Positions 5,217 to 63,793 of a stretch of 64,000 nt of DNA are shown in pieces. How positions within the stretch are numbered: position 1 is the stretch's first letter; every line of letters starts with the position of its first letter. Below the pieces are notes generated by a model, which worked only from the letters and a program-made list of their open reading frames with translations, did not search any database and was not told the DNA's origin. Source of the DNA: an uncultured virus (IMG/VR IMGVR_UViG_3300042389_000736). Taxonomy: Duplodnaviria; Heunggongvirae; Uroviricota; Caudoviricetes. The position numbers and the translations under genes are program-made. The stretch is taken from positions 1 through 64,000 of the IMG/VR virus record IMGVR_UViG_3300042389_000736. One strand, written 5' to 3'.

Positions 5217-5252
5217 TGAAGCCCCCTTACGGATTGACCGTAAGGGGGATTT
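5217..5252. terminator. bidirectional intrinsic terminator
   Basis: CCCCCTTACGG-ATTGA-CCGTAAGGGGG hairpin with flanking A/T tracts. Confidence 0.85.
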
Positions 5253-5349
5253 TCACAGAGATTCTTGGCAGGATTGGCAGATCGGAAGTGACGGAAAGGT
5301 AGTCGTCTATGAATTTGGCCGACAACGCCAATTTCTGCTTCGTATCTCT
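5217..5349 (-). ncRNA. candidate late small RNA (~130 nt)
   Basis: AACA-TCCTGA-TAG promoter at 5348-5360(-), no ATG ORF, nested stems (AGAGAU/AUCUCU, GCAGA/UCUGC, UUGGC/GCCAA, GACG/CGUC), ends in terminator. Confidence 0.55.
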
Positions 5350-5386
5350 ATCAGGATGTTCGAATATCCCAACCGACCGTAGTGAC

Positions 5387-6224: not shown

Positions 6225-6250
6225 AGCTTATTCCTTATCTCTCGACCAGA

Positions 6251-8287
6251 TTAGCGGTTCACGACGAAGTCGATGAAGATACGCTCGATCAGACCGGTGA
6301 AGATCATGTCCACGCGAACGCGGGCAATCTTCTGTTGACGGTCGTAGTCGGAGGCGTAGACAGCACCGGAGATGGTCTTGCAGGTCCTGTTGGAAACCCA
6401 CTTCTGCAGGTAGCTGTTCAGGTTGTAAGACATCGACTCGTGGGTGATCGCGTCGTTGAACTCGTCGCGGTACTCGTCCATCATCGCTTCGACGTCACGC
6501 TTGATGCGCATCAGCGCACGGACGTTGTTGATGTTGGACAGAGCAGAGTTGACGGTCTGCGCAGTCAGCTGCGTACCGAAGTTGATGCGCTTCGGATCCT
6601 TCTCGACGTAGTTGACCTGCGCCTTGTAGAGGGATTCCTTCCACATCTCGTTCGGGAAGAAGTTGATCTGGTCGAAGCCGGAGATCGTGCCACGGCGGGG
6701 GCCGGTGAAGGACCACTGGACGCCAAACTGCTCGTCGTTTGCCGGAATCTTCTTGGCCAGGAAGTAGGTCATGGTGACCTTGATGTTCTGGCCGGTGTAC
6801 TCGTCGTAAACCACCGCGTCTTGGCCGAAAATGGCAGTGCGGAAGTTGGACATGGAGATGGAACCGTGGCGGAAGTCGATCGTCTGCTGGGCGGTCGCTT
6901 GGAAGCCGCAGTCGAGGATTGCCACGCAGTCTTCGCGCATCACGTCTGCGAACTCGGACATCGCGTTCTTCACGGAAGCCGGGTTGTTGCCGTCGAGCAG
7001 CACGTCGAAGAGGTACTGTTTCTTGTCGAGGATCACGCTGTCGATCTCGGCTTTGTAAGCCTTGTTCAGCAGGGACTCTTCGCTGAAGTCAGCGATCTGA
7101 ACCCACAGAGCCGGGTTGGCACCAGTCGGATCGGCAGACTTGTCGTACACCGGACCCCAAGTGCCGTCGTGGCCACCCATCAGGTAGCAGACGTCGGACA
7201 GATCGGGAGCGAAAGACAGAGTCTTCCAGTTGTCCTGATAGTCTTCCGGGTTCGGCACGTCGACGTTGTTGACCTTGGGAGTCGCGAACTTGACGCCTTG
7301 GTTGTGGTGGATGGCGGCAGCGGTGAAGGACGGGGAGGCAGTGCCTTGGCCGGACGCATACACTTGAACGCCAGAACGCTCCTTGCCGAAGAAGACGTCC
7401 AGATGCAGCGGGTTGACGCCGCTGATGTCGGGATCGTGACCGGCAGTGCCATCAACGCCCATGTCGAAGTCGATGATGAAGGAACGAACTTCCTCCATGC
7501 GGTCTTCGTACTCGTCGGCGATGGCGACCTTCAGGAACTTGGAGTACTTGTTCAGCACGTTTGCGAAGAACAGGGACTCGCGGCTGCGATCCTTGGCGGT
7601 CTTCTCGAAGGAGACCGTGTAGGGACCGTCGACAACCACGTCAGCGCCGGTGATGTCCTTGGCGGTGATTTCCAGACCGTAGGTACGGAAGTCGTACGTA
7701 TTGTCCAGACCGTCCTTCACGGACAGGCGGATGCCCATCTTGTTGTACGCCTTGCCACGACCGTACGGGTAGAACACGGCCAGCGGGTACACCTTGGTGG
7801 TGGAGGGAACGGGATGGCCGGTGCCGAGCACGTCGGTCATGGCGGAGGTGTTCGCCATATCCGGTGCGGTGTTGACCAGAGTCTCCATCGCTTCCAGACT
7901 AGCGGCGGAAGTGCCGACAGTGTTCTTGGAACCGACGTTGGAGATCAGAGGAACAACGGTTTTGGAACCGTTCACGTTGTCCAGACCGAGGGACAGGACG
8001 ATGTTGGAGTACTCTGCATCACCCGGCAGAACACGGATGAAGTAAGCCTCACCGCCTGCGCCCAGCCAGTTGTACACGTTGTACATGGACTGGCCGGTGA
8101 TCGGCATGTTGGGTTCGCCGAAGATGAACTTGGCTTCATCCTTGGTGGTGAGTCTTGTCAGAATGTTGTCAGGGCCTTTCACGGCCTTGCCGCATGCGAA
8201 AAGAACCGTCGTACCCGCCGCAGTCTGGAAGACGAACGAGTTGTCGATGATTCTCGAATGCACTGACGGATGCAAATATTCAGGCAT
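6251..8287 (-). CDS. contractile tail sheath protein
   Basis: MPEYLHPSVHSRIID start (ATG 8287); C-terminal GPRRGTI, LYKAQVNYV, SALSNINNVR, IERIFIDFVV sheath motifs. Confidence 0.9.
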   Translation of the reverse strand: MPEYLHPSVHSRIIDNSFVFQTAAGTTVLFACGKAVKGPDNILTRLTTKDEAKFIFGEPNMPITGQSMYNVYNWLGAGGEAYFIRVLPGDAEYSNIVLSLGLDNVNGSKTVVPLISNVGSKNTVGTSAASLEAMETLVNTAPDMANTSAMTDVLGTGHPVPSTTKVYPLAVFYPYGRGKAYNKMGIRLSVKDGLDNTYDFRTYGLEITAKDITGADVVVDGPYTVSFEKTAKDRSRESLFFANVLNKYSKFLKVAIADEYEDRMEEVRSFIIDFDMGVDGTAGHDPDISGVNPLHLDVFFGKERSGVQVYASGQGTASPSFTAAAIHHNQGVKFATPKVNNVDVPNPEDYQDNWKTLSFAPDLSDVCYLMGGHDGTWGPVYDKSADPTGANPALWVQIADFSEESLLNKAYKAEIDSVILDKKQYLFDVLLDGNNPASVKNAMSEFADVMREDCVAILDCGFQATAQQTIDFRHGSISMSNFRTAIFGQDAVVYDEYTGQNIKVTMTYFLAKKIPANDEQFGVQWSFTGPRRGTISGFDQINFFPNEMWKESLYKAQVNYVEKDPKRINFGTQLTAQTVNSALSNINNVRALMRIKRDVEAMMDEYRDEFNDAITHESMSYNLNSYLQKWVSNRTCKTISGAVYASDYDRQQKIARVRVDMIFTGLIERIFIDFVVNR

Positions 8288-9153: not shown

Positions 9154-9753
9154 TCACACTTTCTTGAAGATCTCGTAAGCCTTACCGCCGAGTACCGGAA
9201 TCAGGCCGAGGCGGGAGTTGGTGCGCATGATCATGAAGGCGAACTTCACGAAGACGGCGTACTCCTTCGGGTTAGCGCAGTTCTTGGCGAACAGGTTCAC
9301 CGTGTTGAACATGCAGATCATCTTCTCGCGGAACTCGGCGTCCTTGATAGAGTCGATGGTCTGCATCACCTTCTGGTAGTGGAGGCCGACGATCCGGTTG
9401 CGGCGGTACAGGGAGCGCATTTCGCGTTCGTCCGTCAGGCGCAGGGAATTTAGGCGCTTCACCCCGGAGATGTCCACCATCTCCAGAATCTTCTCGGAGT
9501 TATTGATCAGATCGGCGTTCATCAAGACGTTCTTGGCTGCGGCAATCTGGTGGGGCTGGCTCTCGGGGTCGGCGATGTCGGCTTCTGCCTTCTTCGTCAT
9601 CCCCTCAAGGTACATGTTCATCACATCGACGTAGCCCTTGCGGATGTCTTCCACGTCTTGCTTCAGCGCGGCCAGCTTGCCAGCCACGTCCTCTTGGAGG
9701 TCGAATTCTTCGCCCAACTCTTCAAGAGTCACTTCGTCCTTTTGTTCTTGCAT
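9154..9753 (-). CDS. hypothetical protein
   Basis: 199-aa ORF in the terminase operon, coupled to the upstream stop codon. Confidence 0.7.
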   Translation of the reverse strand: MQEQKDEVTLEELGEEFDLQEDVAGKLAALKQDVEDIRKGYVDVMNMYLEGMTKKAEADIADPESQPHQIAAAKNVLMNADLINNSEKILEMVDISGVKRLNSLRLTDEREMRSLYRRNRIVGLHYQKVMQTIDSIKDAEFREKMICMFNTVNLFAKNCANPKEYAVFVKFAFMIMRTNSRLGLIPVLGGKAYEIFKKV

Positions 9754-10501: not shown

Positions 10502-12562
10502 TTATTTCCGTAGAATGCTGAGAGTTGATGTATTAATCACCAGTTCGCGTTTACCGTTCTTGGGTGAGAACTTGTCCTTGGCGTACTTCAATATGTCGAT
10601 ACCACGGTCGTGGAGGTCAATCATTTCTTGAAGAGAGAGACCGGACACGATCTCGGGTGCCTTCTGGACGCGGTTCAGGTCGGCGATCGAGCGCGGGACG
10701 CTCTTCCCTGAAGACACGACCTGCGCGTTTGCCGAAATCGACGAGCTGGTGCGAAGGAAGTGCGAGATCGAGTTACCGTAGGCGACTGCGTAGCGGACGA
10801 AGAGGTATGCGAAGAGAACGTCATCATGGCATCCCCGCTCGTGCTCCACCTTGCCCTTGGAGTCGTACACCAAGGTCTTGACCTCGTCGTACAGATCCTT
10901 GACGCCAAGCAGGTTCGGGTCCTCGTCGACGACCTGAACCAGCAGGTCGATCATCGCATCGCGGGACTGCTGCGTGGTGTTCACGCCGTACGTGATGTTG
11001 TCCTTCTTCGTCCGGTAGAGCTTATCCTTGTCCTTGTCCTTGATAGGGTAATCGTAGAAAAGGTTGTTAGGGATTCTCCGCACCAGATGGTCGACGAGCG
11101 ACTTACCGTAGCTGTTCCGTTCGATCACTAGGACGGAGTCGGTCAGCAGGTTCTTTACCACCCACTCAAGCAGGGACGAGTAGTACGCGAGGTTGATCTT
11201 GTTGTTTCTGAAGATCGCACAGGGGTACATGTCGATCGGATCGACCACGACGAAGGCAGACGAGTCGTTGCCCGTGCCGCCAGAAGTATCGACGCCGATC
11301 AGGTAGCGTTTGCTCTTCTCAAGCGGGCGGTACACCTTGAGCGGGTACTTCTCAAACACCTTCCCGGTCACCACGTCCGGGTCGTCGGTGACGGACATGA
11401 AGACCGTCTCGATCGGCTCCTCGACGAGGTGAGAGTAGATGACGTCCAGCTGCTCTTCAGAGAAGACCGAGTTATCGGAAGCCTTCGTCCATTCAAGGTC
11501 GATCTCTCGGCGGATGACCAGCTGGTCGTTGGTCAGGGCGCGACATTCTTTGTTGTACCAAGCGTCGTCCAACCCAAGCTGCTGCCAAGTGAACTTGATG
11601 TACAAGAAGTCGTTGCTGGAGTTCGCGGTGATGTACGCTCTCGCATCCTCCTGATTCATGTCGTACAGCTCCTCGGTGAACTCGCAGGCCCCCATGATCA
11701 TGGAGTGGCAGTATTCGCCCTCTGCGGAGTCGAGGTTGTTTGGCGTAGTCGTGATAATCTTGGAGAAGGGCTTGCCGTTATCCTTAGCGATCTCGGCGAC
11801 CTTAGACTGCGCGGGGGCAGCAGATTTGTACACGACGCCGTTGTGGCGGAGGAAGGCAAACTCGTCCAGCCAGAGGATCGGGGTGGTCATACCGCGTCCC
11901 TGCTTGTCAGCAGCTTCGTGCGAATTCGGAGAGCCGGAGCACTTGATCGAGTTGTTGCGCTTGGCGTTGATGATGGACTCGATGTTGTTCGTGTCCTCGT
12001 CATTGAAGATTGCTTCCTGCACGTAGTCTGGCAGCAGGCCGCGAATATCCTTCAGGCGCTTGAGGTTGTTGTTCGCGTCAGCCACGCTCTTGTTGGAGAA
12101 CAGCATCTGCGAGTTGGTGGTGCCGAAGTCGTAGATCCAAGCGAGGATCGCAGCCACCGACATGGTCTTGCCCTTCTGCCGTGGCAGCAGAAGGATCGGA
12201 TTGAAATTGTTCAGCACAGCCCAGACCACGGCAAGGTTGCCGCGATGGAGCTCAAACCGAAGGGCCTTACCCGGAGCCGGGATGCGGGCCACCTCTCTCA
12301 GGAAGTACCAAGGATTGCGGACGATCTCAGTGATGACCCTTGCTTTCTCGTCCCTGGTGATGCGCTTGTTGTGCGGATCGACATTCATCAGGCTCTTGTC
12401 GTACAGGCGCAGGAAGAACTTGTTGTTCGATACCCCCTGTTCCTTCAGGTGCTTAAAGAGCTTGACAAACGATATGTTCTTCGTTGTCGTATGAATGGTG
12501 TAGTCGTCGTACACCACTTTGCCGAAGTAAGGATCAACCTCACTCCGCTTTTTGGCCGTCAT
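10502..12562 (-). CDS. terL: terminase large subunit
   Basis: Walker A LPRQKGKT, Walker B WLDEFAF, TTT motif C, RNase H-like GVDTSGGTGNDSS and HDD; GGAG RBS before ATG 12562. Confidence 0.92.
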   Translation of the reverse strand: MTAKKRSEVDPYFGKVVYDDYTIHTTTKNISFVKLFKHLKEQGVSNNKFFLRLYDKSLMNVDPHNKRITRDEKARVITEIVRNPWYFLREVARIPAPGKALRFELHRGNLAVVWAVLNNFNPILLLPRQKGKTMSVAAILAWIYDFGTTNSQMLFSNKSVADANNNLKRLKDIRGLLPDYVQEAIFNDEDTNNIESIINAKRNNSIKCSGSPNSHEAADKQGRGMTTPILWLDEFAFLRHNGVVYKSAAPAQSKVAEIAKDNGKPFSKIITTTPNNLDSAEGEYCHSMIMGACEFTEELYDMNQEDARAYITANSSNDFLYIKFTWQQLGLDDAWYNKECRALTNDQLVIRREIDLEWTKASDNSVFSEEQLDVIYSHLVEEPIETVFMSVTDDPDVVTGKVFEKYPLKVYRPLEKSKRYLIGVDTSGGTGNDSSAFVVVDPIDMYPCAIFRNNKINLAYYSSLLEWVVKNLLTDSVLVIERNSYGKSLVDHLVRRIPNNLFYDYPIKDKDKDKLYRTKKDNITYGVNTTQQSRDAMIDLLVQVVDEDPNLLGVKDLYDEVKTLVYDSKGKVEHERGCHDDVLFAYLFVRYAVAYGNSISHFLRTSSSISANAQVVSSGKSVPRSIADLNRVQKAPEIVSGLSLQEMIDLHDRGIDILKYAKDKFSPKNGKRELVINTSTLSILRK

Positions 12563-12572
12563 GGTTACTCCG

Positions 12573-12610
12573 AAAAAAAAAGAGGACACTATCTAAGTGT
12601 CCTCTTTCTC
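12573..12610 (-). terminator. intrinsic terminator containing the terminase late promoter
   Basis: AAAGAGGACAC-TATCTAA-GTGTCCTCTTT with A9 tract; GACA-CTTAGA-TAG on the minus strand at 12589-12601. Confidence 0.75.
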
Positions 12611-14224: not shown

Positions 14225-14266
14225 GAAAAATCACCGGACATTACTATAGTACGGTGATTTTTTTTT
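14225..14266 (+). terminator. intrinsic terminator containing a late promoter
   Basis: AAAAATCACCG...CGGTGATTTTTTTTT; GACA-TTACTA-TAG at 14237-14249 in the loop. Confidence 0.75.
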
Positions 14267-14277
14267 GAGAGGTTATC

Positions 14278-24253: not shown

Positions 24254-24269
24254 AACGCATCAGAAGATG

Positions 24270-25316
24270 TTACTTCTTCTTCTTGGCCGGAGTGAAGGTC
24301 TCATTGCCTTCGTCGTCGGTGCCCCACTTGCCGTTGACGAAGTTGCCCTTGGCGTCGAACTGACCTTCGACGAACTCGCCGTCATCGGTAGTCGTGCCCT
24401 TGGTCATGGTCTTGCCGTAGTACAGGTTCAGGCTGACCTTGGTGTGCGGGCTGACGAGGGTGTGGTACGGAGTAGCGACTTGCGCCAGCTCGGTGTTCGG
24501 GGCGTACACGCGAGCTTCCATTTCGCGGCGCTTGAACTTCGCCACGAACTTCACATCGTACTCGGCCAGAGTCTCTTCGAGGAAGGTCTCGAAAGCCTTG
24601 ACGACTTGGATGGTGACGCTCTTGGTCGGAGGAGCGATGCCCAGCTCGACCAGCTTGTCGTGGAAGCGGCTGAACAGTTCGTCCTGCGGCATCCAGGAAC
24701 CCGGCTTCAATTCCTTGCGCTCTTTCTCCTTCTTGGCGCCCCAAGCGGAGTTCTTGCCGGTCTTGGTCTGCTTGCCGGTCGGGACTTCGTCGTCGCCTTC
24801 GTCGTCAGCGGCGGGCTTCGCAGCCTTCTTGGCGGGAGCAGCGGCCTTGACCGGGGCCTTGGCGGCAGCCTTCACGGGAGCCTTGGCAGGGGCCTTCTTC
24901 GGAGCCGGAGCTTCTTCTTCGGCTTCTTCCTCTTCGCCGTCTTCTTCCGAGGATTCTTCTTCCTCTTCTTCTTCCGGCTCAGGGGCCTTCGGAGCGGCCT
25001 TCTTGGCAGGGGCCTTGGCGGCGGGCTTCACGACCTTCTTCGGAGCCGGAGCTTCTTCTTCGGCTTCTTCCTCTTCGCCGTCCTCGTCGCCTTCTTCCTC
25101 TTCTTCTTCCGGCTCAACGGCCTTCGGAGCGGCCTTCTTGGCCAGGACTTTCTTCACCGGCTTGGCCGGAGCTTCTTCTTCCTCGCCTTCGCCTTCACCG
25201 CCCTCGACTTGGGAGTCTTCCTCTTCGTCGTCGGCGGGCTTGCTCACCTTCTTGGAGGCGGTAGCGGGGGAAGCGCCGTTCTTCTTCTTGGCCAGCAGGT
25301 CTTTGATCGATGCCAT
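24270..25316 (-). CDS. HU/IHF-like DNA-binding protein with a long N-terminal alternating acidic/PAKK repeat region
   Basis: C-terminal ~110 aa follow the HU pattern (QDELF...TKSVTIQVVKAFETFLEETL...KFKRREMEAR..NT..KVSL...GK); N-terminal poly-Glu and PAKKA blocks. Confidence 0.65.
   Translation of the reverse strand: MASIKDLLAKKKNGASPATASKKVSKPADDEEEDSQVEGGEGEGEEEEAPAKPVKKVLAKKAAPKAVEPEEEEEEGDEDGEEEEAEEEAPAPKKVVKPAAKAPAKKAAPKAPEPEEEEEEESSEEDGEEEEAEEEAPAPKKAPAKAPVKAAAKAPVKAAAPAKKAAKPAADDEGDDEVPTGKQTKTGKNSAWGAKKEKERKELKPGSWMPQDELFSRFHDKLVELGIAPPTKSVTIQVVKAFETFLEETLAEYDVKFVAKFKRREMEARVYAPNTELAQVATPYHTLVSPHTKVSLNLYYGKTMTKGTTTDDGEFVEGQFDAKGNFVNGKWGTDDEGNETFTPAKKKK
24890..25190. repeat. intragenic tandem repeat, period about 141 nt
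   Basis: GGAGCCGGAGCTTCTTCTTCGGCTTCTTCCTCTTCGCCGTC at 24901 and 25042, partial third copy near 25164. Confidence 0.85.
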
Positions 25317-25581
25317 TTTTCAGTCCTTTCTAGTGACTTGGTACACAGGTAAATTTCCAATCGATTGGAGGCTCTTGTCAGGCTGACCCTTTTGAGTTAG
25401 TATCAGCCTGGAACCACGTAGATTATATCTACGCGATTTCAGGTTTGACGTTTACCGCAGGGTAGTCTAGCCAGATGTTGGATACGCTGAAACCACATGA
25501 ATGCACCTTTCTCAATTAGTTACATCCAGAATCGGGTTCCAGCGCTTTCTTTCAAATACGTTCTAAGACGTTTTTGGTTCT

Positions 25582-26523
25582 CTATGCCAGCTTGATGAGC
25601 AGGTCAATGATGGCCCGCGTCATAGCGATGGAACGGTGATTCCACTTGAGTCTCTCCGAGATCGACACGTCGCTTAGGGAGCAGAACTGCTCCTCGTCTT
25701 TAGACTTGCCGTTGACGAAGAAGATCGAATTATAGCCGAAATCTCGATGCAGCGCACGGAGACTTTCGCGGTCGTTGAGGGAAAAGCCATTCGGAACAAC
25801 GACCTCTCCAAAGAGGGTTCCGATGCCTGACGCCGCGATCTTGCCGGACGGCTCGGCGATGGTCGCCACAGTCTGGAAGTACGCCGGAACCTCACCGTGC
25901 TTCCCGACCACGCTCATGACGCGAGTCAGCAGCATGACCTTGTTCAGGAAGTCCTTCGCGTCCTTGGTTTTCACCGACTCGGGCTTCCCTTCTTCCGAAA
26001 GGATCTCGTGGTAGATGATACCGGCATCCACGAAGCTCTCGGGGTTGTAACGACCGATGTTTCGGTCGAAGTACCGAGCGGAGTAGACACCCGGCTCGTC
26101 TCCAAGCAGCGGAACACAGATACCGGAGTCCTCTGCCATGACGTAGGACGACAAGTGTGCTGCGGTCTGGGTGCTCTTCAGGACGGAGTTCGCGTAGAGG
26201 GTGCTCCCCGTCTCGTCCACTTCCGGTAGCGGAACCTTCGGCACGTCGAACTCCAGCAGCCCGTCCAGCAGCTCCTTCAGATGACCGCTGTTCTCGATGA
26301 ATCCCTTGAATTCGAGCACCTTCCCGTAGTTGCCGGTGGCGAACCAGATTCGAGGATCGCGCTTCAGGGTGATTGGCAGGTAGTCGAGGATGCGTCCCTT
26401 GATCGGCAGCAGGTATGCCATCACGCTCTCGATCTCACTCCGGAAGGAGCTGTAGTTTTCTTGCTGGCGCAGAACCGTCGTGCGGTGCCCGTCCAGATCG
26501 ATGAGGTCAATCACTTCTTCCAT
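25582..26523 (-). CDS. Ham1/RdgB-family non-canonical NTP pyrophosphatase
   Basis: FATGNYGK, AEDSG, PGVYSARY, FGYNSIF, NHR motifs; AAGGA RBS before ATG 26523. Confidence 0.82.
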   Translation of the reverse strand: MEEVIDLIDLDGHRTTVLRQQENYSSFRSEIESVMAYLLPIKGRILDYLPITLKRDPRIWFATGNYGKVLEFKGFIENSGHLKELLDGLLEFDVPKVPLPEVDETGSTLYANSVLKSTQTAAHLSSYVMAEDSGICVPLLGDEPGVYSARYFDRNIGRYNPESFVDAGIIYHEILSEEGKPESVKTKDAKDFLNKVMLLTRVMSVVGKHGEVPAYFQTVATIAEPSGKIAASGIGTLFGEVVVPNGFSLNDRESLRALHRDFGYNSIFFVNGKSKDEEQFCSLSDVSISERLKWNHRSIAMTRAIIDLLIKLA

Positions 26524-26807
26524 GCTTCTTCCTTTTGCTTCATTTGCCGTAGTGGCTAAATCGTACCATCGATACGTTCCTTTCAGTTTTCCTCTCAGTC
26601 GCAGTTGTATTCGGGAATATCTCTTTAGCACATCCCGAGGGGGACTTTAGGGGGTGATAGAGTACGAGATCATCTTTAAATAAATAATGATACCGTAACC
26701 CAGATCATCCTCTAGGAGCACTGATATGATATATGAGTAATAGTGGATTTGCTTTGTAACTACTCATTAATCATGAAACACTTTCATTTTTCTAGGGGAT
26801 AACCACC

Positions 26808-31022: not shown

Positions 31023-31229
31023 ATGAACAGAAACAACATGCTCAAGGCGATGATGCTGACCGCGCTAGTGGTCAGAAGAAACCAAGCAGAGGACGATCTC
31101 TGCCAAGCAGTCGCCGGTACCAGAATCCAAATCGGAGGAAACAAAAGACAAGTTTCCGACGGCAACACATTCAAGTTCAATCTTCCTTTCGAGAAGGGAA
31201 GAAGGACGCCGAAATGCAAGAAAAATTAA
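31023..31229 (+). CDS. small basic protein with FKFNLxFEKG motif
   Basis: 68 aa, strong AAAGGAG RBS, AACT-N6-TAG at 30997-31009, followed by a terminator. Confidence 0.65.
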   Translation: MNRNNMLKAMMLTALVVRRNQAEDDLCQAVAGTRIQIGGNKRQVSDGNTFKFNLPFEKGRRTPKCKKN

Positions 31230-31233
31230 TGAT

Positions 31234-31379
31234 AACCCCTACTGCCACATAGCAGTAGGGGTCTTTCATCGTTTCGAGGTTATCACACTTCCGGACGCTA
31301 ATCTTGTCCTTACCAGTTCGGGGTCCACCTAGCATATCGGTTGCTAGTGCTACTACCTCCACCTGAATTGTGCCTCAGT
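31234..31379 (-). ncRNA. candidate late structured small RNA (~145 nt)
   Basis: AACA-TATCTA-TAC at 31378-31390(-); stems GAGGU/ACCUC, CUAGCA/UGCUAG, GGAC/GUCC; ends at the ACCCCTACTGC/GCAGTAGGGGT hairpin. Confidence 0.4.
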
Positions 31380-31388
31380 ATAGATATG

Positions 31389-31937
31389 TTAGTATTTTCG
31401 GCTGTCGTAAGCCCACTGTAGCAGGGCCTGACGCTGTACGGGACGGCAAGTGGCATCCCCTTTCTTGCAGTTCTTGGTGAGCTGCGCCTTGTGCCTCACA
31501 AAAGACTTCCAGCGGGCGCACTGTTTTGCATCGACCTTCTCGTCGCGGCGTCCCATGTACGCCCGACAATACCACTGGAACCATCCGCGAGGGTCGTCGC
31601 CCACGATCCACCCTTGCTTCCTCCAGTGCGACAGCGGCTTTCTGGATTTCACCTTGAAGTAGTTCAGCTCAGGATCAGCATCTCCGCCATCCTTCACCAC
31701 CTTGGCACCACTGAACCAAGAAGAGGGGAACTCTCCGTGGCAATCGTTGAGGTACTTACCTTCGAAGACACCGAGAGCCAGCATCTCTTTTGGAGTCAGC
31801 TCAGGGTCGAAGCCATATTTCTCCTTCAAGTCAGAGAGGTCGCCTTCCTTGACAGTCAGCTCATAAGAGTAACCCTTCTGCATCTTGTCGCTAACCTTGA
31901 CGGTCTTTCGTTTACCTTCAAGAAGAATGAATTTCAT
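31389..31937 (-). CDS. conserved uncharacterised Trp/Arg-rich protein
   Basis: F.PELTPKEML.LGVF.G.Y, DPRGWFQWYCR.YMGRR and RQALLQWAY motifs of a widespread family of unknown function. Confidence 0.75.
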   Translation of the reverse strand: MKFILLEGKRKTVKVSDKMQKGYSYELTVKEGDLSDLKEKYGFDPELTPKEMLALGVFEGKYLNDCHGEFPSSWFSGAKVVKDGGDADPELNYFKVKSRKPLSHWRKQGWIVGDDPRGWFQWYCRAYMGRRDEKVDAKQCARWKSFVRHKAQLTKNCKKGDATCRPVQRQALLQWAYDSRKY

Positions 31938-32000
31938 GTTTTCCCCAAGAAAAAAGTACACACTAAGGAAAAGTTAGAGGGGCGCAGAGGCCCCTCCTCC

Positions 32001-32666
32001 TTACTTCCGATGACGGAAGGAAACCCGCTTGTCGAAGCCGTGCTGCACCAGCCGGTCTGTATCCGAGATCTTCACAGGCGGGTCCATGTCCGGAGACGGA
32101 TAGATCACGTTGCCCATGAAGTAAGAAATCTCTTGGTACAGAGAGTTCTGATCGATGATCTTAGAGACCCCGAGCTCCGACAAGACAGGCATCTTGTTAG
32201 AGATTCGGAATTGAGTCTTCCGGTTCCCGTAATTGACTTGGATGCTACTCACCCGAAAGATGGGCTGCTTCAAGATACGGCTGAGTTCAACCAGCATTGG
32301 ATGCGTCCCTCCGTCGAAGAAGCGCATGTCGAGCTCTCTCAGAAAGTACTTGGATCTTACGAATCTGATCGACTCGTCAGTAGTGAGTACTCTCACTTCG
32401 TCTGGAAGACCGGAGCCGAACTCGGCCTGCTTGATCTTCATGAGATGAGGCTTCCCGCAGATCGACAGCAGCTCGGTCCGAGTCCTCGAATGGAAGTCGC
32501 TGTGGGTCGAGAGGGGGAAGTTTCCGTTCATCTCAATTTGGATGTCGCGATAGTCCGGTTCCTCCAGCTTGATGAGCGCCGGTCGTTCGTAGACCACCTT
32601 CGGGTCGATCCCGTAGACGTTCGAAATGTGGTCGTAGTAGTCTCTGAATTTGGAGATGATTCTCAT
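32001..32666 (-). CDS. conserved phage hypothetical protein
   Basis: MRIISKFRDYYD start and HGFDKRVSFRH end, a common phage hypothetical pattern. Confidence 0.75.
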   Translation of the reverse strand: MRIISKFRDYYDHISNVYGIDPKVVYERPALIKLEEPDYRDIQIEMNGNFPLSTHSDFHSRTRTELLSICGKPHLMKIKQAEFGSGLPDEVRVLTTDESIRFVRSKYFLRELDMRFFDGGTHPMLVELSRILKQPIFRVSSIQVNYGNRKTQFRISNKMPVLSELGVSKIIDQNSLYQEISYFMGNVIYPSPDMDPPVKISDTDRLVQHGFDKRVSFRHRK

Positions 32667-32905
32667 TGCTTCTTCCTCACAATCTTGTAGTCGTTCGGAG
32701 CGTACTTGTTGTACAGCTCATCGGCTTCCTCTTGTCCGACCAGCGCAGTGTACTTCTTCATCAAACCGCTGATCTTGTCTGCGTGAGCTTGACCTCGACG
32801 CCATGTGCCGCCGTCATCGCTGTAGTTGTAGTACCAGTCATGCCGAGACAGGCTCTCTTCGAGTTCTTTCCTGACCAGCAGGACATCATCTTTCTCGTTG
32901 CTCAT
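32663..32905 (-). CDS. small hypothetical protein
   Basis: HDWYYNYSDDG..WRRG motif; AAGGA RBS before ATG 32905. Confidence 0.7.
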   Translation of the reverse strand: MSNEKDDVLLVRKELEESLSRHDWYYNYSDDGGTWRRGQAHADKISGLMKKYTALVGQEEADELYNKYAPNDYKIVRKKQ

Positions 32906-33311
32906 TTCTCTTCCTTTCAACATAGGACTTTAGGACTCCGTCCGTCGGTTCAAAGTCCATCTTTCCCTCTACGAAAATCCGGTACGACTCTAGGGCATAC
33001 CAGCCGATTCCATGCATCTTGCTCAGTTCGTCTATGCTTGACGGCGGATTGGCTACCCACTCCGCAGCTAGGCGGATTATCATTTTCGATCGCCGGTTCA
33101 TCAATCCTAGCGACCTGATCGTCTCCACCATCTTCGGCAGGTCTTCTTCCTTCACACATTTGGGAGTAGGCCAATGTCGGAAGAACTCATCTACTACGCT
33201 CTTTACCTGCTCACCAGTGGTCCTGTTCAACAGGATGCTACTGATGACTACCCGCCAAGCATCGCCGTGATAACTCTCTTGAACTAACTTGTATTCGGTA
33301 TTGCGTCGCAT
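32886..33311 (-). CDS. MBD4-like HhH-GPD mismatch DNA glycosylase
   Basis: DAWRVVISSILLNRTTG, LGLMNRR, HGIGWYALESYRIF and EPTD..L..Y parallel MBD4 DPWKLLIATIFLNRTSG, LGLYDLR, HGIGKYGNDSYRIF and PEDHKL..Y; AAGGAGG RBS. Confidence 0.85.
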   Translation of the reverse strand: MRRNTEYKLVQESYHGDAWRVVISSILLNRTTGEQVKSVVDEFFRHWPTPKCVKEEDLPKMVETIRSLGLMNRRSKMIIRLAAEWVANPPSSIDELSKMHGIGWYALESYRIFVEGKMDFEPTDGVLKSYVERKRNEQRER

Positions 33312-34417: not shown

Positions 34418-34538
34418 TTGAAACTCCTTGCAAAGATACGGTAATCCGGATGGCTACCACGAAAATTATATATCACTGTTGGGAGCTTACTTCCGGTACG
34501 GCAACAACACCTTAGACCTCATAATAAAAGGAAGAACC

Positions 34539-35090
34539 ATGCATAAAGAGCGGACGTTCTCCGAGACTTCACTTGAGCTAGCCGACGAGCTCATGAAAGA
34601 GCTCGGAGTCAAAGACAAGGACGTGCGGCTCATCGATCAGGCGATTGATGAGTGGCAGAACGAGAAGAACTACACGAAGATATCCCTGACATACTACGGA
34701 GAGCCGAAGGCTCAGGCCCGTCCGAGGTCTTCCAGTCAGCACGGCGGGTTCTTCTATGATCCGAGTAAGAGCCTCAAGCAATGGGTGCTCTCTCAGATCG
34801 TGGCGCAGCTCCCGCCCAATTTCAAGCCCATCGATCGATCCATCGAGGTCACGCTGCGCTTCTACCGGACTATGCCAAAGGGCGGATCCAAGAAGGACAA
34901 GATCCTGATGGAGCTCGGAGTCATCCAGCCTTGCGGTCGTCCCGACATCGACAACTTCATCAAACTCGTTCAAGACGCGCTGAACAAGACGCTGTATACG
35001 GACGACTCCAACATAGTCACGCTGTACGCCGAGAAGTTCTATTCCTGCAAGCCCAGAGTGGAACTTGACATCAAATTCCGTAAAGCCTAA
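34539..35090 (+). CDS. rusA: RusA-family Holliday junction resolvase
   Basis: GEPKAQARPR, RPDIDNFIKLVQDALN..YTDDSNIV, KFYS..PRVE. Confidence 0.88.
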   Translation: MHKERTFSETSLELADELMKELGVKDKDVRLIDQAIDEWQNEKNYTKISLTYYGEPKAQARPRSSSQHGGFFYDPSKSLKQWVLSQIVAQLPPNFKPIDRSIEVTLRFYRTMPKGGSKKDKILMELGVIQPCGRPDIDNFIKLVQDALNKTLYTDDSNIVTLYAEKFYSCKPRVELDIKFRKA

Positions 35091-35103
35091 GAAACAACTT
35101 GTT

Positions 35104-35185
35104 AGTGTGGGACAGTTGTTCTGCACTTGCATCATGCTTTGTCCTTTCTTTTCCCCTAACCCTTTGCCGGGTTAGGGGTCTTTTT
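35104..35185 (+). ncRNA. candidate late small RNA (~82 nt) with an anti-SD seed
   Basis: Promoter AACA-ACTTGT-TAG at 35093-35105; 10-bp hairpin from +1; pyrimidine linker UUUGUCCUUUCUUUU; terminator CCCCTAACCC/GGGTTAGGGG-TCTTTTT. Confidence 0.55.
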
Positions 35186-35228
35186 ACTTCGAAGGACATC
35201 TGTATAGACCAAATAATCGGAGCTAGAA

Positions 35229-36647
35229 ATGCCGACCAACAACGTATACATTCGAGATCTTCCTTACGAGTTCTTGAAGTCAAAGGGAGATGCTTTCCTA
35301 GATTCCGCAAGCCTGACGAATCACGAGAGCATCTTCATAGGAACAAAGGCAAGTGCGCCGCTGATGGCAGCTCCCAAGACGAAGGAGGAGATTCCAGACG
35401 TCGTGCTGAAAAGCCTCAGAGAGCTGATCGTCAGAAAGTACACCGACAACACTTCATTCACGAAGGTGGAAGAAGACACTCTGCTGATGTCGTACTACTA
35501 CCTGCAGTCCAAGGCCATCCTCGCCAACGACTTCAAGAAGGAAAAGAAGAAGCTCCATCCGGTGACAAACAAGGCATCGAACTTCAAGACCGGAGAGCCA
35601 CCACTGATGCTTCGCCGGGTGCTGGAGAACCCTCTGGTGAAGAAGCTTCGGAAAGGGTACACCGCTTCGCCAGACAAGAGCAGCCTCAAGCTCCGCCCGG
35701 AGAAGACGGGAAAATCCGTCAAGGATATCATCAAGTCCAGCAAGTTCTACCAAGAGACGGCGAGCTCTCTGGTGTACGACGACGTCCAATACGCCGCGCA
35801 CGTCATGAATGAGGCGATCAGGAACGCTGGAGTCCAAGGGAGCTTCCCCGCGTGGGTTTACGAGATTCCATCTGGTAGCGCCCAGCAATCGACGGAGTAC
35901 AAGTTCAAGTACGAAAACGTCGCAGAGATGGTGAAGTTGGTCCGCAGTTTGATCGAAGACAAGTACAACTTCGGCTTCCAGACGATGACTCAGGGGAATA
36001 TCGACACCGCTGAGATCCTGAAGGAGTCGATGCTCGCTAGACTTCGGAGTCCAAGCGCCGACCCGGCGTACGTCTTCCTGAAGTTCGAGACCACCGGAAA
36101 CGACCCGATCGGCGGGACGTACAACTTCAGAGTGCAGGACTTCTCGTCTGACAGGTATTTCTTGGCGGGGGTGCTGAACTACTCCTCTCTTGAGATCGAC
36201 CTGAACCCTCGTCTGAGCCAGGACACGGTTAATTCCACCCTGAGATTCTCGCCGAGAGCCGGTGACGCGTCTGTCTGCGTCCTTCTAGGCAAGGACAGAA
36301 CTCCATTCCGCATTTCAGGAATGGATAAGAAGCTCTTCAACATCGACACGTTCACCGTCGATGAGGCAATGAACACTTGGACGATCGACTTCGACGGTGC
36401 TGATGATAACTTCGTCTTCCAAGTCGAGTCGAACGGCAGCATCGTCACACCGACTTCCGCCCGCCTGCTCTCCGACTCAAGGATCGAACTGCGCTTCAGG
36501 ACTGCTGTTAGCGGGAAGCTGTTCATTCTCTCTTGCGCTAAGAACTGGCCGAACGACGCGATGCTAGTGGTCACTGAGGAGAATGTCGAACGGATCCTTG
36601 CAACCACGAATTTCCACAAGAAGGTGTACAGGAAATGGATACAGTAG
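35229..36647 (+). CDS. probable virion structural protein
   Basis: 472 aa; GACA-N6-TAG promoter at 35195; C-terminal NTWTI...IELRFRTAVSG beta domain resembling tail/baseplate proteins. Confidence 0.6.
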   Translation: MPTNNVYIRDLPYEFLKSKGDAFLDSASLTNHESIFIGTKASAPLMAAPKTKEEIPDVVLKSLRELIVRKYTDNTSFTKVEEDTLLMSYYYLQSKAILANDFKKEKKKLHPVTNKASNFKTGEPPLMLRRVLENPLVKKLRKGYTASPDKSSLKLRPEKTGKSVKDIIKSSKFYQETASSLVYDDVQYAAHVMNEAIRNAGVQGSFPAWVYEIPSGSAQQSTEYKFKYENVAEMVKLVRSLIEDKYNFGFQTMTQGNIDTAEILKESMLARLRSPSADPAYVFLKFETTGNDPIGGTYNFRVQDFSSDRYFLAGVLNYSSLEIDLNPRLSQDTVNSTLRFSPRAGDASVCVLLGKDRTPFRISGMDKKLFNIDTFTVDEAMNTWTIDFDGADDNFVFQVESNGSIVTPTSARLLSDSRIELRFRTAVSGKLFILSCAKNWPNDAMLVVTEENVERILATTNFHKKVYRKWIQ

Positions 36648-38680: not shown

Positions 38681-38765
38681 AGACATGACGTATGAGACTC
38701 GTTCTCATACGTCATTACTTTTTTTGCAAATATATTATCACCATGTGAGATTCTCGGAGAAATAA

Positions 38766-45112: not shown

Positions 45113-47852
45113 TCTTTCTCCTGAAGTCCGCTACGACCGTCTTGTTGAACATCGTCGTCTCGTCGCTGGTGTCGAAGTTCGCCCCCTTGAGGAGGACGAC
45201 CCCGATCTCCGCGCTGGCGAAAGCCTCGTTGTGTGTGATCACGAAGCATTGCTCGCAGGCCAGAGCGTCCAGCTGTTTTTCGAGGATGTCAAGGAACTTG
45301 TAGCGATTGGTGGTATCGAGTTCCGCGTCAACTTCGTCGAGGTAGACGAGGTTGTACTTGGTGTCAGATTGTCTGATCGCCCTGCTGGTGATCCCCAACG
45401 ACAGAGAGCACTTGACCAGCGCGGTCTCGCCTTGGCTGCACTCAGTGATATCCTTGGCGTACGGGAACCCGTTCTTGTAAACCGGGATGCTGAAGTCGGT
45501 GTCGGACACGTTGAAGTCGATGGCAAAGCCGTCGCCGAGCGCCAGCGTCAGGAGCCGGTTCGTCTCTTCCTTGATGCCGTCGAGGTAGGAACCGAGGATG
45601 TGGAGGGGAATGCCGGTCTTGATGTCGAGCGCGTCTTTGACGACTTTCAGAACTTCCCGGCTGTCCATCAGATTCGCCTTCCGCTCCTCGTATTCCTCGA
45701 TTCTGGCCAGTTTGGTGGAGTAGGTTGCCACCTCCTTGGTCAGCTCAGTCACGCTCTCGTCGAGGGTCTCCTTCTCCCCTTCCAGATCTTTCACCTTCTG
45801 CTCGGCGGTCGAGATGCGCTCGATGTTTTCGAGGTTGTTCTCGTAGATCTTGTTGAGGGCCTTGAGATCCTTCTCGATCGCGGCGACTTCGGCGAGAATA
45901 CTCTGCAGGGTTTCGATCAGGTCTTTGGCGGATTCCTTCTTCTCCAGCGACTCCTTGGCGTCCGCCAGTCCCTCCTTCACCTCGGCCTCTTTCGGAGTGA
46001 TCCGGGTGATCTCGTCGTTTGCCTTAGAGATCCGGTCGTTGATTTCCCCGACGAACGATTCCACATCGCTCATGGACTCAATCTTCGACGCGGTGTTCTC
46101 GATTGCAGCTTTCTTGTCCTCGATCTTCTTGGCCAGATTGACCTTGCGCACGACGGGGGACATATCGAAGAGGCTTTGGACTTCCTCTGCGGTCATGTCG
46201 TACACCGCCATCCCGATGTCTCGGTTGTGCTCTTTGAAGACTTCAGCAAGTTTGGTCTTGGCCAGAACCGAAGGACTCATCTCGACGAACATGTAAACGC
46301 CAGACTGGAACAGCTGGGCCTTCGTCCTTATGGCTTTGAGACATGCGATTCTTGTCTGGATTTTCTGGAGGGCAATCTCGGCCTTCTCGATCGTCTCCTT
46401 CTTCTCGGTCAACTCGTCGGCTTTCTCCTTGTGGGAGAGGCCGATCTTGTAGACCTCGCAGGTCTTGCTCCGGCAGAGCGAAGCGACGTCGATGGTGGTC
46501 TTGGAGGCGATGCGCTCGTCTTCGGCAGAGCGAAGCTCACGCTTCAGCTTGGAGATCTCGGCTTCCTTCTTCTCGGCGAGGAGCTCGTCCGATTCGATGC
46601 GCTCCTTGAGGGACTGCTCCGACGCCGTGAACATCAGCTCGATGTACTCCTCGTCGAAGTCTGCAACGAGGCGCTTGCCCTCAACGATGTCCATCGCCAG
46701 ACGCTGGGCCTGGGCGCTGTCGGAAGTGGCGTCCTCGACGACGATGCCGTCGATGATCCCGACGCCCTTGATCTCCTTGAACTGCTTCTCGACTTCCTTC
46801 AGTTCTCCTCTGTACTTCGATAGCAGTTCCTTCAGCTCGTCGACCGACGTGGTGGAGCTCTTCGAGTACTTCTTCAGCTCGATCTGAGCGGCATTGCGGT
46901 TGTTTGTCGCTGCGACCCTCGCCCCTTGGAGGCGTTCGAGTTCGAGAGTCAGCTCGTTCACCCGCTTAGTGAGATCCTTGATCTCGGAGTTCAGGCTTCC
47001 GATCTTCTTGGCGATCGTCGCCTTGTCGTACTCCCTCAGCTTCGGATAGTCGGAGTAGACCTCTTCGAGTTCGCCCTGCTTCTCGGCGAGCTCCTTGGTC
47101 TTCGCTTCCCGCTCCGCAAGCTCTTCGGCGAACTCGGCCACCGCCTTCTTAGCGGTCTCCACCTCTCGCTGCGTCGAGATGATCTCGGCGGCAAGCTTGG
47201 CGACGTTCTGGCTGGTCTTCTTGAGAGTCTTCCCGATGACGTCGATGCGGGACTTGACTTCTTCCTTGTCCTCCAGCTTCGACATCTCGTCGGTGATGTA
47301 CTTGATCTCCTTATTGGAGAGATTCAGCTTGTCGTTGACGACCTTGTATGCGTTGATGTACATGTCGATCGAGGGGGTGAACTTCCCCAAGAACTGCTTG
47401 CGGGCGCTGGCCTGCAGGTCGATGAAGTTCTTGCTATTGGATCCGATCTTGACGATCTTGAAGAACTCCGCGTTCACCCCGAGCTCTTCCTCCACGATGG
47501 CGATGAACGTGCGGATGCCGCCAGACTCGTTCAGGGACTCGTCGTTCTTGTAGATGAAGGACTTGTTCTTCCCCTTGCCGTAGTAGTGCTCGATGCGATA
47601 CAGGTCGCCGCCCTTGCGGATGTGGATCTCCTTATATCCCTCGTGGTCGTCGAGGATCAGGCTGTCCCGGCTATCGAAGGACTCCATGAACGGATGGAGG
47701 GTAGACATGATGGTCGACTTGCCCGACCCGTTCGCGCCTAGGAAGAGGATGATGCGCTTCTCACACTTCGTGAAGTCGATCTCGATCTCTTTGCGTCCCA
47801 TCCCTGCCATGATTCCTTTGAAGTTTTTCAACTTCAGGTACTCGATTATCAT
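45102..47852 (-). CDS. sbcC: SbcC/Rad50-like SMC ATPase
   Basis: Walker A GANGSGKS, long coiled coils, signature CSQGE, Walker B YLDEVDAELD, ITH. Confidence 0.9.
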   Translation of the reverse strand: MIIEYLKLKNFKGIMAGMGRKEIEIDFTKCEKRIILFLGANGSGKSTIMSTLHPFMESFDSRDSLILDDHEGYKEIHIRKGGDLYRIEHYYGKGKNKSFIYKNDESLNESGGIRTFIAIVEEELGVNAEFFKIVKIGSNSKNFIDLQASARKQFLGKFTPSIDMYINAYKVVNDKLNLSNKEIKYITDEMSKLEDKEEVKSRIDVIGKTLKKTSQNVAKLAAEIISTQREVETAKKAVAEFAEELAEREAKTKELAEKQGELEEVYSDYPKLREYDKATIAKKIGSLNSEIKDLTKRVNELTLELERLQGARVAATNNRNAAQIELKKYSKSSTTSVDELKELLSKYRGELKEVEKQFKEIKGVGIIDGIVVEDATSDSAQAQRLAMDIVEGKRLVADFDEEYIELMFTASEQSLKERIESDELLAEKKEAEISKLKRELRSAEDERIASKTTIDVASLCRSKTCEVYKIGLSHKEKADELTEKKETIEKAEIALQKIQTRIACLKAIRTKAQLFQSGVYMFVEMSPSVLAKTKLAEVFKEHNRDIGMAVYDMTAEEVQSLFDMSPVVRKVNLAKKIEDKKAAIENTASKIESMSDVESFVGEINDRISKANDEITRITPKEAEVKEGLADAKESLEKKESAKDLIETLQSILAEVAAIEKDLKALNKIYENNLENIERISTAEQKVKDLEGEKETLDESVTELTKEVATYSTKLARIEEYEERKANLMDSREVLKVVKDALDIKTGIPLHILGSYLDGIKEETNRLLTLALGDGFAIDFNVSDTDFSIPVYKNGFPYAKDITECSQGETALVKCSLSLGITSRAIRQSDTKYNLVYLDEVDAELDTTNRYKFLDILEKQLDALACEQCFVITHNEAFASAEIGVVLLKGANFDTSDETTMFNKTVVADFRRKNEK

Positions 47853-47953
47853 GCTTGGTTCCTTTCTTCTTGAACACGCATATCATATATGTCATATTTT
47901 TCTGTTGCACAGATAAAAATCTCCATACGGCGCTAACCGTATGGAGATCCGTA

Positions 47954-58794: not shown

Positions 58795-58888
58795 TGAAGT
58801 CGGTAACGATTAATTAGACAGGTATTCACGGATGGCCCTACAGGTGAAAAGCCTGTAGGGCCTCCTCATTTCTTCGCATGGTGACCAA

Positions 58889-60298
58889 ATGGCCGACGAA
58901 AACAATCCGTATTCTCAATTCTACCAGCCGGGGTTCGGTACCATCATCGGTCGGCCCCTTGCTTTCAATCCTCGGTGCGATCCTCACCAGAGGATCTTCC
59001 AAGAGACGCTGCTGCAGAACAACACAATCATCCGCGTCACCCCCGGAGTCTATCACTTCGAGAAGGACAAGCTGGAGGCGGCTGATCTGATCCTCAAGGA
59101 TCATTCCAAGCAGGTCGACGAGATCAAGAAGTCCAGAAGAACCACTGCGGCAGAAGAGCTCGACCAGCTCAACGCCCAGACCCAGCAGATTCTCATCAAG
59201 GAAGGTATCGACATGCGATACCTGACCTTCAAGCCAGCGTTCGCCGAGTTCTTGACCGCCTACCAGCTTCTGGTGAACCGGGCAGGCACCTCTCTGACCG
59301 GGCGGTCCAATGCCAGCACGATGACGAAGTTCACGACTAACATCATGGACTTCATGCTGCACAACGACGCCAAGCAAAGCTCCAAGTACCGTGGGTTCAA
59401 CCTGTGGGTGGAGAAGTCTACGTCTATCTCCGAGACGGTGTCTAACTCCTTCTCGGACTCCGTCTTCCAGGGTCTGACCGACAAGATCGGCAACGCCGCG
59501 AGAGAGTTCCAGGTTCTGACGGGGATGAACTTCGGCACCTTCAACGAGTCGAACAACGTCGAGGTGACGACTCAGAACAACATCGGGTCCAACGAGGCTT
59601 CCACGGTTGGCCGTCTGGTCCAGACTGCCGCGACGACTGCCTCCGGCGCGAAGGTCGTCCTTCCGCAGATCTGGAATGACAGCAAGTTCGACCGCAGCTA
59701 CAACGTGTCGTTCCGTTTCATGTCCCCGTACGGCGACGACCGATCCGTCTTTGTGAACGTCATCCTGCCGTTCCTCTTCATCTTGGCCTGCGCACTTCCG
59801 ACTCAGGACGGTCCTTCCGGCATGAAGTTCCCTTTCCTGCTACAGATGGACTGCCCCGGCTACTTCAGCTGCCCTATGGGCGTGATCAGCAACCTGAGCT
59901 TCACCAAGGGCGGCTCCGATGCGCTCTTCAATCGCTCCGGACTCCCTCTGATCATCGAGGGTACCTTCAGCGTGATGGATCTGTACAGCTCTCTGTCTCT
60001 GCCCATCAACGATTCTCAGTTTGTGACTAACCTCGGAACTGCTGCGTTCATCAACAACTTGGTTGGTGCGTCGCTGTATCAGGCGATCGACACCGGCATC
60101 AAGGACAACCTGCAGAACTATGTCAAGGGCGGTCTCTTGAAAATGGTCAGTCCGTTCAATTCTCTAGACGCCAAACAGCTAGACCTGATGCGTTACGCTG
60201 GCATTGCCACCGACCAGACGACTCCGCTAGGATCTACCGTCGCCAACAAGATCGGTCAGGCCGTGAACAACGTGATGGGAATGCTATCGAAGTACTGA
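58889..60298 (+). CDS. baseplate/tail tube initiator-like structural protein
   Basis: Follows the TMP; PQIWNDS.FDRSYNVSFRF.SPYG and GVISNLSFTKG tube-fold-like motifs. Confidence 0.55.
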   Translation: MADENNPYSQFYQPGFGTIIGRPLAFNPRCDPHQRIFQETLLQNNTIIRVTPGVYHFEKDKLEAADLILKDHSKQVDEIKKSRRTTAAEELDQLNAQTQQILIKEGIDMRYLTFKPAFAEFLTAYQLLVNRAGTSLTGRSNASTMTKFTTNIMDFMLHNDAKQSSKYRGFNLWVEKSTSISETVSNSFSDSVFQGLTDKIGNAAREFQVLTGMNFGTFNESNNVEVTTQNNIGSNEASTVGRLVQTAATTASGAKVVLPQIWNDSKFDRSYNVSFRFMSPYGDDRSVFVNVILPFLFILACALPTQDGPSGMKFPFLLQMDCPGYFSCPMGVISNLSFTKGGSDALFNRSGLPLIIEGTFSVMDLYSSLSLPINDSQFVTNLGTAAFINNLVGASLYQAIDTGIKDNLQNYVKGGLLKMVSPFNSLDAKQLDLMRYAGIATDQTTPLGSTVANKIGQAVNNVMGMLSKY

Positions 60299-62032: not shown

Positions 62033-62448
62033 GATTTACCTTTGGTGGTGGATCTACAGACTAATGCAGTGTTCTTGTCGCACTTGAACAGTTTGTCGAG
62101 AACTTTCACCAAAGTTTCGGGTTTGAACGGCTTGATGATGTAGCCGTTCACCCCGAGTTTCACCATCTCTTCGATGCGCTTCTTCTCGCACTCGGCGGTC
62201 AGCATGACCACAGGAGTCCTTTCCATGCCGGGAGTCTGCCGCACCTTGGCGACTAGGTCTCCCCCTGTCATGTTCGGCATGTTCCAGTCGCTGATGACTA
62301 GATCGTACTTGCTGAGCTGGAGAGATTCGAACGCTTCCCTCCCGCAGCTAGCCTCGGAGACGGTGCATCCGTACTCCTTGACGATGGCCGAAACGATGCG
62401 CCTCATCGTGGACATGTCGTCCACGACCAATACTCTTTTGCTCTTCAA
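61984..62448 (-). CDS. cheY: CheY-like single-domain response regulator
   Basis: VLVVDDMSTMRRIV, ISDWNMPNMTG (phospho-Asp), MLTAE, GYIIKPF; TTG start with AGAGGT RBS. Confidence 0.85.
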   Translation of the reverse strand: MKSKRVLVVDDMSTMRRIVSAIVKEYGCTVSEASCGREAFESLQLSKYDLVISDWNMPNMTGGDLVAKVRQTPGMERTPVVMLTAECEKKRIEEMVKLGVNGYIIKPFKPETLVKVLDKLFKCDKNTALVCRSTTKGKSCQECKIWSASSSAEK

Positions 62449-62454
62449 GGCATC

Positions 62455-63723: not shown

Positions 63724-63793
63724 TTGCGTAAAACCTCAAATTGTGATATATTATTAGAGAGTTCCGACATCAGAAACTCTTACAGGAGATGGT

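Follow-up and report, generated by a model that had tools for sequence, protein, structure and literature searches.

The spacer that separates the rusA-like gene from the g087-like gene behind it, in the 64,000 nt of phage DNA analysed here (the window), is best explained as a short unit of late transcription that lies inside the rusA 3' UTR, and we give this reading a probability of about 0.5. The phage non-virion RNA polymerase (nvRNAP) would start RNA at A35104 from an AR9-type promoter. Most transcripts would then stop at the terminator of rusA and leave a structured RNA of ~82 nt late in infection, and the late operon downstream could use the read-through fraction as its leader. Any action in trans would rely on pairing of the exposed linker with Shine-Dalgarno (SD) and start regions, that of sbcC being the best prediction. 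The unit is well formed from late promoter to terminator, is one of three such units in the window and is probably transcribed. We infer the firing of the promoter at 35093, efficient termination and any activity of the RNA from the sequence.

Scans with PHROG and Pfam profiles identified a jumbo myophage gene set in the window (tail sheath, large terminase and portal-like protein) along with several split RNA-polymerase beta-like subunits, SbcCD, DnaB and RusA. The nearest named phage is Yersinia phage phiR1-37, with 48.6% identity between RusA and the g086 product and 39.4% identity for an RNAP beta-like subunit, followed by the AR9/PBS1 group at ~33%. Judged by these genes, the window is part of a phiR1-37/AR9-like jumbo phage. 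The G+C content of the phage is 51-60%.

The window makes up the opening 64 kb of a contig of 77,986 nt. The same phage is represented in IMG/VR by a 136,853-nt record, which agrees with the window at every position over 24,113 nt, and so adds no variation there, and has 1 difference in a further 318 nt. Genome statistics were calculated on 142,868 nt, that is the contig and 64,882 non-overlapping nt of the IMG/VR record. Genes were called crudely as longest ORFs in a greedy manner; at least three were placed on the incorrect strand and amended manually, so gene-based counts are approximate. Longest-ORF calling is unreliable in this genome, where spurious long ORFs lie antisense to real genes at 34578-35135(-), 5382-6254(+), 31491-32690(+) and 24267-25352(+). 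The true gene opposite 5382-6254(+) is 5442-6224(-) (phrog_21257, E 9e-83), and 32001-32666(-) matches phrog_4243.

At both -11 and -10, the template strand of promoters used by the AR9 nvRNAP must carry uracil. Late promoters of AR9 have the form AACA-(6N)-T followed by A or G, the last base being the transcription start site (TSS), and this consensus marks the mapped late TSSs (PMC5312081). With the purified AR9 nvRNAP, substitutions at -11 to -8 abolish transcription in vitro (PMC5449584), and in AR9 a strong stop of transcription was reported at predicted terminators (PMC5312081).

A motif of the same kind could be recognised in the present phage. AACANNNNNNTAG has 29 matches in the 136,853-nt sister record as against 6 for the reversed control, and the motif matches mostly precede start codons by 17-90 nt on the coding strand. 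Taken over the whole genome, the bare motif shows no enrichment (45 AACA-N6-TW sites vs 49.8 +/- 6.6 in shuffles). We collected 32 reference sites located 17-152 nt before genes or tRNA, in which the information is confined to the AACA/TA core and a G at +2 (22/32), with positions +3 to +11 being poor in G. About 8 non-promoter AACA-N6-TA sites occur in 286 kb of strand, and ~1 chance copy of the motif is expected across all intergenic DNA. Judged from its placement, AACA-N6-TA, usually followed by G, is a genuine late-promoter class in this phage and is used genome-wide. The gene for tRNA-Arg(tct) stands directly behind a canonical late promoter, so noncoding late products exist. It is one of six tRNA genes in the phage (Glu, Ser, Tyr, Ala, Asn and Arg), found at 1414-2582 and 9246-9322 of record G001/L008, upstream of the window.

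Divergent intergenic regions carry a second motif, ATATAT followed by C or G and then A, with A+T-rich flanks; examples in the window are found at 25640-26800, 32900-33100, 38720-38760 and 62400-63800. This is presumably the early promoter class of the virion RNAP. Both kinds of promoter are seen upstream of rusA and of sbcC. GACA-N6-TAG variants were also observed inside the loops of terminator hairpins at 12560-12600(-) and 14225-14270(+), which may be a coincidence or a case of overlapping signals.

The rusA-like Holliday junction resolvase gene (34539..35090, + strand, 183 aa; PF05866, E 1.9e-24; phrog_140, E 6.7e-37) has a canonical late promoter of its own, AACAACACCTTA followed by G, at 34503..34514(+), whose predicted TSS precedes the ATG by 25 nt. 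Its stop codon occupies 35088-35090, and rusA transcripts have their terminator in common with the element. A preliminary description of this DNA had placed another late promoter 2 nt past that stop codon, and a canonical AR9-type promoter is indeed present there (AACA ACTTGT TA, then G; 35093..35104, + strand), with AACA at 35093-35096, TA at 35103-35104 and the predicted +1 at A35104. All positions of the AR9 consensus are thus present, and the complete core (AACA, 6 nt, TA and G at +2) supports the model of a late RNA. The first transcribed bases are rich in G (GUGUGGG), unlike the G-poor +3 to +11 region of the reference promoters.

According to the fold prediction, the RNA would begin with a hairpin of 10 bp and loop AGUU (35104..35127, + strand). 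The hairpin had been called perfect; the ten pairs are there, but three of them are G-U, and because these are needed the hairpin forms in the + strand RNA only. The 5' 49 nt alone fold with -12 kcal/mol (z -1.9; 7/200 shuffles fold as well), and the whole 81-82 nt with -31.2 to -31.7 kcal/mol (z -4.8), mainly owing to the terminator. Both the MFE and the centroid fold contain the hairpin and the terminator and nothing else. Between the two lies a CU-rich linker (35128..35152, + strand), which was expected to be unpaired and is predicted to be single-stranded with an unpaired probability of 0.6-0.99 over its CU-rich stretch at 35138-35152. The reverse complement of the linker has every part of a translation initiation region (AAAGGA, 6 nt, ATG). 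The strong terminator described behind the linker was likewise recovered as an intrinsic terminator (35153..35185, + strand; -19 kcal/mol) with a 10-bp stem including 7 G-C pairs (arms 35153-35162 and 35169-35178), a 6-nt loop and a UCUUUUU tail, encoded by TCTTTTT ending at 35185. This layout yields a predicted RNA of 82 nt with an exposed CU-rich stretch. No Rfam family matched in the whole window (best local score 18.1 bits vs a threshold of 140). Two small reading frames in the spacer were considered and rejected: a 13-codon ATG frame at 35133 has no SD, and a 36-aa TTG ORF begins inside rusA.

The distance between the rusA stop codon and its terminator is unusual for this phage. Among strong terminators, the median distance from the stop codon is 12.5 nt, and 57/78 entries have a distance of <=20 nt. 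The terminator of rusA begins 62 nt past the stop and is an outlier. Five strong terminators (-19 kcal/mol or better) lie >=50 nt downstream of the stop of a long ORF. One of them follows a small ORF and one a tRNA, and for the other three (35153+, 31270- and 5256-) the noncoding stretch before the terminator opens with a canonical late promoter. By our own arithmetic ~0.01 AACA-N6-TA sites are expected by chance in these 322 nt. The stretches were chosen after the fact, yet such a pattern is difficult to set aside.

Apart from the rusA-linked element, these are two sister units on the minus strand. Unit (a) (5222..5360) has the promoter AACATCCTGATA followed by G, a TSS at A5349 and a terminator stem at 5248-5222, for a predicted noncoding RNA of ~128 nt (fold -52.7 kcal/mol, z -6.55). 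The terminator of the virion gene 5442-6224(-) borders the unit on one side and the end of the portal-like gene on the other; the unit is flanked by two convergent terminators and shows an exposed loop, ACUACCUUUCC. Unit (b) (31222..31390) has the promoter AACATATCTATA, which overlaps the stop codon of gene 31389-31961(-), a TSS at A31379 and a strong terminator stem from ~31270, for a noncoding RNA of ~158 nt (fold -55.6 kcal/mol, z -4.0). Its terminator may also serve the + strand ORF 31023-31229. Neither unit has a downstream gene on the same strand, and the ORFs inside both are without SD. As there is no gene for them to lead into, the two units cannot be leaders, and they lend plausibility to the idea that the phage makes independent short late RNAs. 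It is chiefly the presence of three such noncoding stretches running from promoter to terminator that leads us to put the short late RNA at about 0.5. Inspection by eye also showed unit (b) to be complementary over 8 nt to the linker of the rusA-linked element, which is within chance and was discarded.

We searched for the element in other phages and in sequencing data. Neither the spacer nor the 472-aa gene downstream gave a match in named phages with blastn and tblastn. The search of IMG/VR returned the same phage only, and metagenome scans and one GTDB scan gave no relative. For the 472-aa protein seven homologs were found. Four of the 20 listed sequencing runs were compared. Run X3 contains the same sequence over 34933-35313, with 1 difference at 35261. 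Run X7 contains the rusA of a relative, ending at 35080, with substitutions mostly at third codon positions. Run X10, which is recorded as RNA, gave no match on 34450-35450, and the other three runs are Logan contigs recorded or judged as DNA. Contigs of this kind cannot show RNA starts, and the comparison has no bearing on transcription.

In phiR1-37 (NC_016163.1) rusA and g087 are 1 nt apart, and the element is absent at this junction. The AR9-type motif does precede phiR1-37 genes: there is an AACA-N6-TAG before rusA, with the TSS 33 nt before the start. According to the AR9 paper (PMC5312081), no consensus for late promoters had emerged from the transcriptome study of phiR1-37. We also identified a late promoter followed by a strong terminator and then a gene at TSS 45179(+) before g084 and at TSS 195262(-) before the structural gene g272, with further cases at TSS 135663(+) and 186443(+). 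Five AACA-N6-TAG sites lie <=9 nt before a terminator stem, where our own arithmetic gives an expectation of ~0.4, and promoter-terminator sites in this genome include 45168-45215(+), 135652-135715(+), 186432-186475(+), 195161-195273(-) and 32976-33088(-). One phiR1-37 unit is an orphan: it occupies the long spacer between g077 and g078 on the minus strand, with both neighbouring genes on the other strand. This phage group thus habitually puts its late promoters ahead of terminators. The phiR1-37 junctions resemble the element in the order of stop codon, late-promoter motif, strong terminator and late gene. They differ from it in that the start is mostly 5-9 nt before the terminator stem and that no second promoter-like site follows.

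This arrangement bears on what the promoter at 35093 serves. The downstream gene (35229..36647, + strand, 472 aa) is by homology and synteny the counterpart of phiR1-37 g087, and the next two genes correspond in position to structural genes of phiR1-37. The preliminary description gave it a promoter of its own at 35195. What is found there (35195..35206, + strand) is GACA-N6-TA followed by G, a late-promoter-like variant with GACA instead of AACA, in other words an A-to-G change at -11. By AR9 rules it would be inactive and its function is doubtful; part 1 of AR9 Table S3 has no row with G at -11 (PMC5312081). The promoter at 35093 could therefore be the real late promoter of the g087-like operon, with a terminator that shields the late structural genes from rusA transcription but lets part of the transcripts pass; the short RNA would then be a mere terminated by-product. 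The terminator, at +49 to +82, does lie between the promoter and the gene start at +126, the GACA variant is the sole promoter-like site behind it, and a substitution at -11 abolishes in vitro transcription in AR9 (PMC5449584). A 5' UTR of 125 nt would be inside the AR9 range of 26-491 nt (PMC5312081). The GACA variant and the promoter-before-terminator habit of phiR1-37, which repeats the order of late promoter, strong terminator and RBS with gene without room for a second promoter, make the leader or read-through role a serious rival. Genes of the present phage also start directly after terminators, for example at 69097 and 58889, where a hairpin is followed by RBS and ATG with no recognisable promoter (contig 69040-69097 and window 58800-58889), so read-through seems to be part of normal operon expression. 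We nevertheless consider the pure leader role possible rather than probable: with a strong terminator 49 nt from the start, the RNA polymerase should be in normal elongation there; GACA-N6-TAG stands at a typical distance of 23 nt from the start codon; and units (a) and (b) have the same build without any gene to serve. A terminated RNA of 82 nt is expected under either the small-RNA or the leader model.

Alternatively, the AACA-N6-TAG at 35093 might be a silent chance match in a rusA 3' UTR that merely carries a stabilising hairpin and a terminator. With ~1 chance intergenic copy expected genome-wide such a match is conceivable, and the absence of the spacer from the same junction in phiR1-37, the G-rich start region that departs from the reference promoters and the RNA run without a match on 34450-35450 all fit this passive role. 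It leaves the 62-nt terminator distance unexplained against a norm of <=20 nt, however, and gives no reason for the motif to stand at the head of all three otherwise unexplained noncoding stretches that precede strong terminators, so that we hold a passive 3' UTR, like the pure leader role, to be possible rather than probable. It is far less probable still that the CU-rich tract is simply the antisense of a real minus-strand start. The minus strand does show AAGAAAGGA, CAAAGC and an ATG at 35135, a textbook SD-spacer-ATG for this phage, leading into an open frame of 185 aa antisense to rusA. On the other hand, the frame has no Pfam match, no minus-strand promoter motif was seen upstream, and this genome has many long antisense ORFs. 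Furthermore, the relative's rusA (~80% identity) varies mostly at third codon positions, which are first codon positions for the antisense frame. The 185-aa ORF was rejected on this codon-position pattern and on the absent Pfam family.

Within the late transcription unit that we prefer, a narrower possibility, and a subset of it, is a stand-alone trans-acting sRNA whose CU-rich linker blocks the SD and start regions of selected phage or host mRNAs. The preliminary description had pointed to 9-nt complements of the linker in two RBSs, and these exist at 25323-25331 and 47860-47868. Their frequency is at chance level: each 9-mer has one copy besides the element where ~0.85 are expected, and 19 and 20 of 100 shuffles, respectively, give >=2. 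The complement announced for the RBS of ORF 31023 is also present, as AGAAAGGA upstream of the ORF. The gene at 24270-25316, labelled HU-like on that occasion, gave no HU-like match, and the PF00216 gene of the phage is 14671-15081.

Across the genome the linker matches 28, 9 and 5 of 152 initiation regions over >=7, >=8 and >=9 nt, counts that are equalled by 5%, 8% and 4% of same-composition shuffles (n=300), and its mean top-10 duplex energy is equalled by 0.3% of 300 shuffles. Windows of 20 nt from the linker have a complement of >=7 nt in 20-24/120 SD-bearing initiation regions, and 0.37% of 3000 random genomic windows reach the count of 20/120. Target prediction on the phage initiation regions, as had been proposed, gave the sbcC initiation region as the top duplex, with -25.3 kcal/mol and pairing from the SD through AUGAU. 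A best target of this energy or better was obtained with 1% of 400 shuffles, but also with 11% of 600 random genomic 25-mers and with 14% of 51 TCCTTT-containing 25-mers outside initiation regions; whether the complementarity exceeds chance thus changes with the control chosen. Since AAGGA occurs in 53/152 initiation regions and AAAGGA in 26/152, any mirror image of an initiation region will match many genes. The complementarity is what would be expected of any SD-spacer-AUG mirror image, and it lends the claim of a riboregulator that represses selected mRNAs no specific support. The anti-SD property is not common to the sister units either, as unit (b) has none and unit (a) reaches <=7/120.

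The targets appear to be generic, because the 9-mers are at chance level, the sbcC duplex is matched by genomic controls and the sister units are negative; anti-SD function is left without specific support. The trans-acting sRNA draws some strength from the predicted openness of the linker, from its unusual reach among initiation regions against random genomic windows and shuffles (0.3-8% for the latter), from the rarity of the sbcC energy among shuffles and from the orphan sister units, which favour stand-alone late RNAs. Against it stand the same chance and control frequencies, the missing anti-SD property in the sister units, the lack of an Rfam family and the empty phiR1-37 junction, and on balance we find it distinctly unlikely. 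The same low standing applies to a broader proposal, in which the phage would have a small set of late ncRNAs made by the nvRNAP (three in 64 kb), with the rusA-linked one damping SD-dependent translation late in infection. Read as a riboregulator, this RNA would mimic the 16S 3' tail and at the same time be the antisense of an initiation region. If true, this would be of interest and would give the AR9/phiR1-37 transcription system its first assigned riboregulator; at present anti-SD function is just a sequence property.

The late transcription unit has implications of its own. The AR9 late-promoter rule extends to an uncultured, G+C-richer relative of phiR1-37, and the window contains units from promoter to terminator without genes which, if transcribed, would be small RNAs made by an nvRNAP. 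A literature search and the main text of the AR9 paper gave no mention of such RNAs for this phage group, and small or noncoding RNAs in general are not mentioned in that main text (PMC5312081). AR9 and the present phage share the core motif, its spacing and the +1 position. In both, late promoters also drive tRNA and antisense non-mRNA products and terminators end operons. By contrast, every TSS in part 1 of AR9 Table S3 is attributed to a gene, an antisense RNA or a tRNA (PMC5312081). The present phage also differs from AR9 in its G+C content of 51-60% and in being uncultured, and its DNA may not carry the uracil on which the AR9 nvRNAP depends, a point against the late transcription unit.

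Comparable elements are found in other systems. DapZ and MicL are type I 3'-UTR sRNAs, which have their own promoter and a terminator common to the mRNA. The rusA-linked element resembles them in having a promoter at the end of the upstream ORF, a common terminator and a single-stranded stretch between hairpin and terminator. It differs in that transcription by a phage multisubunit RNA polymerase is proposed and in that it is known from sequence alone. For icaR of Staphylococcus aureus, anti-SD pairing of a 3' UTR takes place in cis. The element shares with icaR a pyrimidine-rich anti-SD tract in a 3' UTR. Unlike in icaR, the initiation region of its own gene ranks only 70 of 157 predicted partners (-12.2 kcal/mol). 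The start region of the next gene ranks 112 of 157, and cis pairing was rejected for both.

Among lytic Pseudomonas phages, ncRNA1 and ncRNA2 of PAK_P3 and 17 candidates derived from 5' UTRs of phiKZ were described as short, abundant, late RNAs from untranslated regions (PMC10914365). The predicted RNA would likewise be a short, late, UTR-located RNA of a virulent or jumbo phage. The PAK_P3 RNAs have no TSS of their own and are made by processing (PMC10914365), whereas the rusA-linked element has a canonical promoter.
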